Below are positions 61,909-64,000 of a stretch of DNA of 64,000 nt, in pieces. The translations under genes and the position numbers were made by a program. Numbering within the stretch: position 1 is the first letter of the stretch; each line of letters starts with the position of its first letter. The notes below the pieces were generated by a model. The model was not told where the DNA came from, made no database searches, and saw only the letters and a program-made list of their open reading frames with translations. The DNA is from a bacterium. GTDB lineage: Bacteria; Bacteroidota; Bacteroidia; Bacteroidales; FEN-979. The stretch covers positions 2,443 to 66,442 of the forward strand of contig JBAXDH010000004.1 of assembly GCA_037141055.1 (NCBI GenBank), in the 5' to 3' direction.

Positions 61909-64000
61909 ATGAAACAAAAACTTTTACTTTTCGCAACAGCATTGTTTTTAAGCGTATTAAGTTACGCACAGGTCACAACCGGCGTAGCCATCAACGCTAC
62001 GGGAGCCGATGCCGCCGCCAGTGCCATCCTCGATGTGAGCAGCATCACCAAAGGGGCGCTTGTGCCGCGCATGACCGCCGTGCAACGCGGTGCCATCGTT
62101 TCGCCCGCCACAGGGCTGTTGGTTTTCCAAACCGATGCACCCGAAGGTTTTTATTATTACAATACGGCTTCCTCCTGGGTTTACCTGACAAATTCAGCCG
62201 GAGTGCTGGCCATCGCAAATGGAGGAACAGGTTCGTCATCCCAGAATTTTGTGGATTTAACCACCGACCAAACCGTTGCCGGAAATAAAATTTTATCGGG
62301 AAATACCACTCTAGGCGGCACTTTGGGCGTAACGGGAGTTGCCACTTTAACGGCAGCACCGGTACTTTCGAGCACCACTGCTTCGCAGGCATTGTTTACC
62401 AATGCGGGCAAGAATGTCGTTTCCAATCCTGTAACAGGAACCGGAAATGTTGTGATGAGCACTTCGCCAACGCTGGTAACCCCAACCCTCGGCGTTGCTT
62501 CCGCCACTTCAATTAACGGATTAACGCCTGCTTCTCAAACCACTGGTTTTACAATTGCAGGTGGCACTACTCCCAAAACATTGACCGTGCCATTGGATGC
62601 CTCGGTGAGCGGCACAAACACCGGCGATAATGCCGTGAATTCACTGTATAGCGGAGTGGTTACCAATGCCACCCATACCGGCGATGCCGAAGGCGCAACC
62701 GCACTCACTGTAAAAAAGATAAACGGGGTAGCGCTCTCCGGGCTTGCAAGCGGTATTTTGAAGAATACCACCGCTACCGGTGTCCCCTCTGTTGCGGTTG
62801 ACGGAACCGATTATTTATCCCCAACCACCGGCTGGAGCCTTACCGGTAACTCAGGCACAACTGCCGGAACCAACTTTATCGGCACAACCGATGATAAGGC
62901 GCTTGTCTTTAAAGTTAATAGCCAAAAAGCAGGGCTGGTAAGCACAGGCACCAATACTTCTTTTGGCTATCAGACATTAAATGTAAATATTGGTGTTTAT
63001 AACACTTCCAATGGGTATCAGGCATTATTATCCAACACATCGGGTAACGGAAACACTGCCATTGGTTCTCAAGCATTATACTCGAACATAACCGGCTATA
63101 ATAACACTGCCAATGGTTATAATGCATTATACTCGAACATAAGCCATAATAATACTGCAAATGGTGCTTCTGCATTATACTCGAACACAAGCGGCCATAA
63201 TAATACTGCAAATGGTGCTTCTGCATTATACTTGAACATAAGCGGCCAATATAACACTGCAAATGGTTATCATGCAGGAACATATATAACCGGTGGAGCT
63301 GCTCCAAATGCAACCAGTTCCAATTCTGTGTATCTGGGCGCTCAAACAAAAGCTTTTGCGGATGCCCAAACAAACGAAATAGTGATTGGCTATAATGCAA
63401 TCGGCGCAGGTAGCAATACTGTTACCCTGGGCAATACCTCAATAACAAGCACGGTTTTGCGTGGCAATGTGCAACATTACGGCACTACTTCGGGGTATGT
63501 TGGTTTGCAGTCGCCTGCAACCGTTGCAACGCCCTATTCGCTTACCCTGCCAACTGCAGCCCCGGCAAGCGACGGCCAGGTGCTGAGCGCAACAACGGCC
63601 GGCGTGATGAGCTGGGCAAGTGCCGGAAGCGGCTGGGGCTTAACCGGAAACATAGTCACCGCAACTGACTTTATTGGAACAACAAATGATCAACCCCTTG
63701 TTTTTAAAGTAAACAGCCAAAATGCCGGACTGGTAAGCTCAGGCACCAATACATCTTTTGGGTATCAGACATTAAATGCCATCACATCGGGTACCAATAA
63801 CACTGCCAATGGTTATAAGGCATTATGGTCCAACACACAAGGTTCTTATAATAATGCCAATGGTTATCAGGCATTATACTCAAACACATTGGGTGTAGAA
63901 AACAATGCCTATGGTTATCAGGCATTATACTCAAACACAATGGGTGGCTATAACACTGCCAATGGTTCTGCCGCATTAAAGTCCAACACAACGGGCGAAT
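61909..64000 (+). CDS. Secreted fibre/adhesin-like repeat protein, 3' end beyond the window (absent from the ORF track)
   Basis: I hand-translated 697 codons from the ATG at 61909 and found no stop. Signal peptide [31 protein letters not shown] motif, and repeated NTANGxxALYSNTxG units resembling YadA-head/Hep_Hag repeats. Confidence 0.8.
   Translation, partial: [697 protein letters not shown]

Follow-up and report, generated by a model that had tools for sequence, protein, structure and literature searches.

Lcl of Legionella is a secreted trimeric 'lollipop' adhesin whose DUF1566 head binds sulphated glycans and whose N-terminus keeps the protein on the cell surface (PMC11162425); it uses type II secretion, in a proteobacterium. 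Among Bacteroidota, the Prokaryotic Genome Annotation Pipeline (PGAP) recognizes 'tail fiber domain-containing proteins', which combine PF26696 (PTL_trimer) with the chaperone domain Peptidase_S74 (PF13884). Related modules occur in phage fibres and spikes, such as the tail spike of Flavobacterium phage vB_FspM_immuto, the tail fibres of Pelagibacter phages HTVC111P/112P, and fibres on viral contigs of IMG/VR (L107-L165), and short repeats of a similar kind are found in trimeric autotransporter adhesins. In our literature searches, PTL_trimer, PF26696, PF26209, and secreted 'tail fiber domain-containing' proteins were not the subject of any paper found, and no tested function turned up for the relatives named by PGAP. 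Here we describe a gene at the end of a 64,000-nucleotide (nt) stretch of a Bacteroidales genome (G000:C4:2443-66442, hereafter the window). We put at about 0.6 the probability that its 895-amino-acid (aa) product, which we call the fibre protein (P0002), is a fibre of the Bacteroidota PTL_trimer family, exported by Sec and most likely a homotrimer; its export, trimerisation, surface location, and ligand we infer. Its role would presumably be that of an adhesin, a ligand-binding surface fibre.

The original prediction, made from the letters of the window alone, held that a frame opening at ATG 61909 on the forward (+) strand stays open to the window end, that it was omitted from a program-made list of open reading frames (ORFs), and that this list held five antisense ORFs in its place. 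All three statements hold. There are 0 stops over the 697 codons up to base 64000, a run with a chance of ~1.5e-17 given the base composition of the window (2.4e-22 for the full 895 codons), and an ORF listing includes the frame only if open-ended ORFs are allowed, which accounts for its omission from a default list. Its span is overlapped on the antisense strand by exactly five complete ORFs of at least 60 aa (62045-62392, 62181-62507, 62535-62771, 62915-63400, and 63782-63991). The contig runs on for 7.3 kb past the window, and the gene ends at L005:3038, which is C4:67038 (L005 being C4:64001-73715). The window (61909..64000, +) contains 697 of the 895 codons; the other 198, or 597 nt including the stop, lie beyond it, and the call closes a gap that the window edge had left in the annotation. 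Re-sequencing that showed a stop or a frameshift had been named as grounds against the frame. Neither was seen: the 2,688-nt gene has 0 nt differences across four independent assemblies from different samples, each with the same 895-aa call, and this identity answers the question of a frameshift in the gene's favour. The frame is an intact, genuine chromosomal gene, and its product is rich in Thr (15%), Ala (13%), Gly (12%), Ser (10%), and Asn (10%), a composition typical of fibres.

The protein begins with a signal-peptide-like N-terminus (residues 1-20; 61909..61968, +), read from the sequence as MKQK, 14 hydrophobic residues, and SYA, with cleavage before Q; by eye, it is the clean signal peptide that had been claimed. 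It contains no Cys, the sole Cys of the protein being residue 708, so the fibre protein is not a lipoprotein, and no lipobox Cys of the kind expected in a surface lipoprotein stands at the cleavage site. Close behind lies the PTL_trimer domain (Pfam PF26696; residues ~24-96; 61978..62196, +), known from the precomputed Pfam annotation of the exact protein. This domain includes the KGALVPRMT...GFYYYN block quoted in the original prediction (residues 47-85), and residues 24-96 are 42-92% identical to those of 29 homologs. In a full-length AlphaFold2 (AF2) model, its core (residues 50-95) reaches a predicted local distance difference test score (pLDDT) of ~90; all of our structure models are AF2 monomers. 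On its sequence, we assign the fibre protein to the PTL_trimer family. Our own Pfam and NCBIfam scans of the whole protein and of four fragments gave zero matches at E<=10; the Pfam library scanned predates PF26696 and PF26209, and both families are known here from precomputed annotations. PDB sequence and profile searches with the whole protein, an N-domain profile, and a tip profile returned nothing significant.

The PTL_trimer domain is followed by a Thr/Gly/Ser/Ala/Val-rich stalk (residues 97-303; 62197..62817, +), which has no Pfam or PHROG match, is modelled at pLDDT <50 as a monomer, and is common to ~20 of the 119 best homologs. It begins with a 10-residue motif bearing [AV]NGGTG (residues 102-111) that had been associated with the N-termini of phage tail fibres. 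The association with phage fibres stands, with the motif in 10 of 67 phage-type fibres vs 1 of 884 other ORFs of the same viral loci; the association with N-termini does not, the motif sitting there at residues ~139-255. No Bacteroidota O-glycosylation sequon, D(S/T)(A/I/L/V/M/T), is present in the fibre protein.

Beyond the stalk, two related repeat modules flank a connector. Module 1 (residues 304-520; 62818..63468, +), supported by self-alignment, repeat period, and pLDDT, consists of a GWSLTGN...FIGTTDD...LVFKVNSQ cap, six NTANG repeats (63001-63303), and a closing motif. Module 2 (residues 571-784), supported by self-alignment and by matches to PHROG 23837, 6002, and 4636, occupies 63619..64000 (+) of the window and runs on to L005:2702. 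The two had been proposed as copies 801 nt apart, and they are: residues 304-549 and 571-809 align with 150 of 246 positions identical (61%, E 7e-94; each ~245 aa), and their DNA is 72-83% identical at a spacing of 801/795 nt. Both open with GW(S/G)LTGN..FIGTT(D/N)D..LVFKVNSQ and close with a GSNT-type motif. The 16-17-aa NTANG repeats described for them were also recovered, six per module at a period of 17 aa (16 in one case), with starts at residues 365-449 and 631-716. The connector (residues 521-570; 63469..63618, +), read from the sequence and nearly identical in several relatives, contains the SGYVGLQSP...VMSWAS block (residues 524-570) quoted earlier. Module 1 is modelled at pLDDT 75-85 with one short strand per 17 residues, as expected of a solenoid or beta-roll. 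Such modules are common to ~100 of the 119 best homologs and the N-domain to ~50 of them.

The repeat modules match virion-structural and tail-spike families (phrog_23837, 2.5e-30; phrog_6002, 1.1e-23; phrog_4636, 3.7e-11). A tblastn search of 50,697 phage records matched 73, all within fibre residues 309-788 at 32-43% identity and under features annotated as tail spike, tail fibre, or structural protein; the hosts of these phages are Flavobacterium, Pelagibacter, Prochlorococcus/Synechococcus, Roseobacter, E. coli, Achromobacter, and Cellulophaga. The N-terminal 300 residues were untouched by PHROGs and phage tblastn. The repeats had also been called YadA-head/Hep_Hag-like, which went no further than resemblance: neither the whole protein nor module 1 alone matched YadA_head (PF05658) in Pfam at E<=10, and the period is 17 and not 14. 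Like trimeric autotransporter adhesins, the fibre protein has short Asn/Thr/Ala/Gly-rich N(S/T)(A/V).G repeats with a beta-roll shaft expected in the trimer; the Joint Genome Institute (JGI) names some of its relatives 'trimeric autotransporter adhesin', and some relatives match PF05658. Unlike these adhesins, apart from the period and the missing YadA_head match, it has no type Vc secretion and no YadA-type anchor: the Pfam scan found no such beta-barrel, and the C-terminus is a soluble seven-strand tip.

This C-terminus lies outside the window, and a sorting domain of the type IX secretion system (T9SS) or an S74 chaperone had been named as an informative find there. Extending the contig revealed neither, and instead a phage-fibre tip (residues 785-895; L005:2703-3035, +, with the stop at L005:3036-3038), supported by PHROG matches, PF26209 relatives, AF2, and Foldseek. 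The C-terminal 123 aa match ten PHROG families, each at the C-terminal end of the profile, and four of them are annotated as tail fibre (PHROG 9017, 3904, 7760, and 22179). The tip shares 81-84% identity with the C-terminal ends of P0103, P0009, and P0011, which bear PF26209 (Phage_phiTE_241_C), and is best grouped with that family; PF26209 is not among the precomputed annotations of the fibre protein itself. Residues 771-895 are predicted to form a seven-strand all-beta domain (pLDDT 89.4; predicted TM-score 0.78; 27-sequence alignment). With this model, Foldseek found 207 viral predicted structures at E<=1e-3 (TM-score up to 0.81), including tail fibres, collagen-repeat fibres, and phage proteins with YadA-like heads, and among PDB folds the capsid spike of Pseudomonas phage Pa223 matched best (E 7.5e-4). 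The tip is present in about 4-14 of the 119 best homologs (7-14 by one count). A hidden Markov model (HMM) census places it at the C-terminus in 45 of 46 cases, and in other proteins it is attached to repeats of the collagen triple-helix and YadA_head kinds. Both the repeat modules and the tip share homology with segments of phage tail fibres and spikes, the tip in fold as well as in sequence, and the kinship with phage tail fibres suspected in the original prediction is strongly confirmed by the PHROG families, the phage records, and the viral fold matches. As a side observation, most other carriers of a phiTE_241_C-type tip (P0124-P0141) are proteins of 1,100-1,400 aa with Pfam PF19264 and without PTL_trimer, which, on domain content, would represent a second large architecture using this tip.

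The relatives that PGAP names after tail fibres share with the fibre protein a signal peptide, an N-terminal PTL_trimer domain, the GW.LTGN...FIGTTD cap, and runs of NTA.G..AL..NT.G repeats. They are 31-47% identical to it over about half of the protein and come from the same lineages as the fibre protein's (Chitinophagaceae, Saprospiraceae, Bacteroidales, and Flavobacteriales). Unlike them, the fibre protein lacks the C-terminal S74 chaperone that is the source of their name and ends in the Phage_phiTE_241_C-type tip; a six-frame search of the genome for Peptidase_S74 found three, on C72, C18, and C136, and none in the fibre protein.

Homologs of the fibre protein number >4,091, and a profile of 30 N-domains found 57,290 protein clusters (50% identity) at E<=1e-3 and 38,658 at E<=1e-10. 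This Bacteroidota family is very large and, although catalogued, functionally unexplored, and the fibre protein is an ordinary representative of it; as one more member of a family of ~57,000 clusters, the single gene alone matters little. Both of its terminal domains are catalogued in Pfam, yet they are without function in the searchable literature, and the proteins are abundant in environmental Bacteroidota. A restriction of the N-domain to cells was considered and rejected: the same profile finds 358 stretches on IMG/VR viral contigs, mostly C-termini of phage fibres. In most of these viral-contig ORFs, PTL_trimer forms the last ~60 residues of proteins of 650-2,050 aa without a signal peptide; in a minority, a signal peptide is followed directly by PTL_trimer, as in the fibre protein. 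The proteins with the C-terminal copy sit among tail genes, as at L117, with a major tail protein and tail-fibre homologs, and those of L118 match the same three PHROGs as the repeat modules described above.

The HMM census made the difference in domain position measurable. Among 77 bacterial homologs with PTL_trimer, a set biased by its retrieval as homologs of the fibre protein and with signal peptides called by a simple heuristic, the domain is N-terminal in 68 (62 of them with a signal peptide) and C-terminal in 0. Among 91 viral-contig ORFs with PTL_trimer, it is C-terminal in 67, 58 of these without a signal peptide, and N-terminal in 14, 11 of these with a signal peptide and no C-terminal copy. 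This asymmetry between bacterial and phage proteins is strong despite the bias of the set. The fibre protein thus resembles phage fibres in its NTANG modules, PHROG families, tip fold, and PTL_trimer domain (~50-66% identical between phage and bacterial copies), whereas the phage versions are encoded among tail genes, lack a signal peptide, and end in PTL_trimer, and the fibre protein carries the domain first after its signal peptide, among non-phage chromosomal neighbours. The arrangement is suggestive: in the bacterial proteins PTL_trimer would be at the end that comes first out of the Sec translocon, and in the phage fibres, which fold in the cytoplasm, it is at the C-terminus. The unusual conservation of this small domain and its recurrence in long proteins fit a node that registers the trimer better than a variable receptor-binding site. 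Viral-contig PTL_trimer proteins that do have a signal peptide were noted at L097-L106, L113, L128, L131, and L156 (11 with the domain N-terminal, 9 C-terminal); they may be host flanks of predicted prophages, phage-carried cargo, or a third arrangement.

Family members were found in 13 of 15 genomes of congeneric species, with up to 33 matching segments each. None of the 15 contains a full-length ortholog of the fibre protein, and the best match is 63% identical over ~200 residues; within this genus the family has both expanded and been shuffled. The modules, N-domain, stalk, and tip are unevenly shared among the 119 homologs, which points to evolution by module shuffling, as in phage fibres. 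A comparison of repeat number between strains, as the original prediction had proposed, showed a difference: P0006 (708 aa), encoded at the orthologous locus L096 with the same downstream genes, has one module where the fibre protein has two. The DNA of the two loci is 98.9% identical over L005:1-1879 and 99.3% identical over L005:2705-6007. Between these flanks lie 825 nt here (residues ~510-784, connector and module 2) vs an unrelated 264 nt in L096; the left breakpoint is at L005:1880 (residue ~510), and the two ends of the cassette fall at the conserved module-closing motif. The distal variation is a cassette exchange, not a simple repeat deletion.

The same genome also contains short secreted paralogs, at G000:C136:6262-7074 with an adjacent ORF (L008), G000:C9:30948-31193 (L009), and G000:C72:16485-16922 (L007). 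By eye only, those on C136 and C9 (392 aa and 281 aa) appear to consist of PTL_trimer, little or no stalk, and then an Lcl_C-like head; on C136, two PTL_trimer genes stand side by side. The C72 paralog (508 aa) has a long helical region at its end.

Upstream of the fibre gene are genes for a tRNA nucleotidyltransferase, an isopentenyl pyrophosphate (IPP) transferase, a DUF3108 protein, an amino-acid permease, a receiver protein, a five-PAS histidine kinase, and a tetratricopeptide repeat (TPR) protein with a C-terminal helix-turn-helix (HTH). Downstream, 4 nt past the stop, begins a gene whose 480-aa product has a signal peptide of its own and two Lcl_C (DUF1566) domains (1.3e-27). It is followed by a gene for a 496-aa secreted protein and then, on the opposite strand, by one for a C10 peptidase with a T9SS sorting domain; in a 144-kb version of the contig, aldehyde dehydrogenase and UvrA genes come next. 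No phage structural, packaging, or lysis genes were found in the 62 kb upstream, in the 7 kb downstream, or in the 144-kb version. Because the neighbours are housekeeping, signalling, and secreted-protein genes, the locus is chromosomal and not a prophage. A separate Lcl_C gene 4 nt downstream of the fibre gene is also present in L093 and L096, and in P0005 and P0009 Lcl_C is fused to the fibre C-terminus.

By analogy, the closest parallel to the fibre protein is a phage fibre that has become a secreted appendage of the cell, with a design like that of Lcl. The proposed fibre would share with Lcl (PMC11162425) a secreted trimeric stalk, a terminal ligand-binding head, and surface retention through the N-terminus, and hence its design principle. 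The Lcl_C (DUF1566) head itself is encoded by the next gene at this locus, in addition to the fusions and the paralogs mentioned above. Unlike Lcl, the fibre protein lacks collagen repeats and an amphipathic N-terminal helix, and Lcl_C belongs to a second polypeptide that has a signal peptide of its own.

We propose that the fibre protein would be exported by Sec with cleavage of its signal peptide, PTL_trimer emerging first. This domain would bring three chains into register and possibly hold the fibre on the cell envelope, and the stalk and the two solenoid-like modules of 17-residue repeats would form a rigid shaft. The phage-type tip, alone or with the neighbouring Lcl_C protein, would then bind a ligand on a surface, the likeliest candidate being a glycan of particles, algae, or other cells, and cassette swapping would change the length and specificity of the fibre. 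Phage homologs of the fibre are trimers. We favour a trimer here because of this and because of the family name, the joining of the tip to collagen and YadA_head repeats, the S74 chaperone of relatives, and a stalk that is not modelled as a monomer.

Several results weigh against this proposal. The signal peptide call comes only from inspection by eye and a simple heuristic, and no recognised signal for crossing the outer membrane is present in the fibre protein, neither a T9SS sorting domain nor a lipobox. The genome has 150 matches to the T9SS sorting domain (Por_Secre_tail), none of them in C4:64351-67038. The full-length AF2 monomer is poor (mean pLDDT 52.6, 55-sequence alignment) and usable only at the N-domain and module 1, module 2 having failed, probably through repeat misalignment; the geometry of the shaft is not established by this model, with which Foldseek found nothing better than E=3. 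Finally, PTL_trimer is repeated within many proteins, in up to 11 copies, which fits a general trimer node better than a dedicated anchor.

In a genome that relies so heavily on T9SS, the fibre protein could be T9SS cargo, with its C-terminal beta domain acting as an unrecognised sorting domain and attaching it to the surface like the ~150 other substrates. A few relatives bear PF18962, and the tip, all-beta with ~90-100 aa and seven strands, has the size and class of T9SS sorting domains (PMC11285876). Against this, neither type A (PF18962/TIGR04183) nor type B (TIGR04131) sorting domains were matched (NCBIfam at E<=1; Pfam at E<=10 on the C-terminal 123 aa), the tip is homologous by sequence and fold to the tips of phage fibres, which are not T9SS substrates, and no T9SS sorting-domain structure is among its top 50 PDB fold matches. 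We consider T9SS cargo unlikely, and the specific idea that the tip is a cryptic sorting domain was rejected on grounds of both sequence and fold. It is similarly improbable that the protein never reaches the cell surface and remains periplasmic or sits on the inner side of the outer membrane. A Sec signal peptide as the only export signal would be compatible with such a location; a multi-module fibre with phage receptor-binding-like tips, however, has no obvious periplasmic role, and its relatives bear T9SS domains or lectin heads.

The receptor-binding type of its modules and its strain-variable distal cassette would also suit a soluble antagonist or decoy, that is, a free fibre that coats receptors of competitors or kin, for bacteriocin-like targeting or to block phage adsorption, and is not the producer's adhesin. 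A rapidly shuffling multigene family with no recognisable anchor is consistent with such a role; yet neither a toxin or lytic domain nor an immunity gene can be recognised, the linkage to a lectin-like Lcl_C head points to adhesion, and this reading, wholly speculative, appears quite unlikely to us. It is highly improbable that the fibre protein is instead a virion or tailocin part, serving as tail fibre to some prophage, phage-like bacteriocin, or extracellular contractile injection system with genes elsewhere in the genome: its distal modules are all common to phage tail fibres and spikes, NCBI names its relatives 'tail fiber domain-containing protein', and PTL_trimer fibres do sit among phage tail genes on viral contigs, but virion fibres are assembled in the cytoplasm and this one has an N-terminal signal peptide, the domain position typical of viral-contig proteins without a signal peptide (the extreme C-terminus, 58 of 91) occurs in 0 of 77 bacterial homologs, no phage structural, packaging, or lysis genes lie in the 62 kb upstream, the 7 kb downstream, or the 144-kb contig version, and the neighbours include a lectin-like secreted protein and a T9SS protease.

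The fibre protein falls outside four classes, namely the S74-type 'tail fiber domain-containing proteins', recognisable T9SS cargo, trimeric autotransporters, and virion components; for each of them a defining feature was tested and is missing from it. Returning to a Sec-exported trimeric fibre, we also considered a bolder version of it, which we regard as unlikely. Bacteroidota may have re-ordered the parts of phage fibres for Sec export, moving PTL_trimer behind the signal peptide and leaving a phage-type terminal domain at both ends. The N-domain would nucleate the trimer as it leaves the translocon and may dock the fibre non-covalently on a glycan of the producer's own surface, in the way that a phage fibre attaches to its host, and the swappable tip would bind the target. 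If true, re-ordered phage-fibre parts would be a route of surface display without a T9SS sorting domain or lipidation for tens of thousands of proteins. The contrast in PTL_trimer position, the linkage and fusion to Lcl_C, and the swap of the distal cassette between otherwise 99%-identical strains offer handles on the function of such domesticated phage-fibre proteins and on their way out of the cell.

Further observations concern the genes around the fibre gene. Directly upstream of it, in three loci (window 59540-61366, L094:2182-4020, and L095:638-2461), is a gene for a ~600-aa regulator in which a signal peptide and TPR repeats are combined with a single transmembrane segment and a C-terminal HTH; the HTH is LuxR-like here (by eye) and of the HTH_18/AraC type in the relatives. 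Orthology of these regulators across loci was considered and rejected, since only the layout of TPR, transmembrane segment, and HTH is common to them (~21% identity, E 4e-7), and we claim no conserved regulon. Between the regulator and the fibre gene, a 58-aa ORF (window 61605-61781; L089:9697-9873) is called in all four other assemblies and has no family match. The length called for the product of the downstream Lcl_C gene (L005:3042-4484; C4:67042-68484) is 480 aa here and in L092 and 459 aa in L089-L091 and L096; the longer form has an odd tail at its end, ..NYPFNHLSIFSFYDTAQRQIF, and the 3' end differs between otherwise identical assemblies. The 496-aa protein encoded next (L005:4645-6135; C4:68645-70135) has a signal-anchor-like N-terminus, no Pfam match, and marginal NCBIfam matches, and its gene is kept beside the Lcl_C gene in near-identical strains and not in more distant loci. 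After it, a stretch of ~126 nt (L005:6137-6262; C4:70137-70262) is 83% identical to L096 450-575, just upstream of the fibre gene there, and looks like a further copy of the palindromic intergenic element found at window 59229-59348 and 61775-61894.

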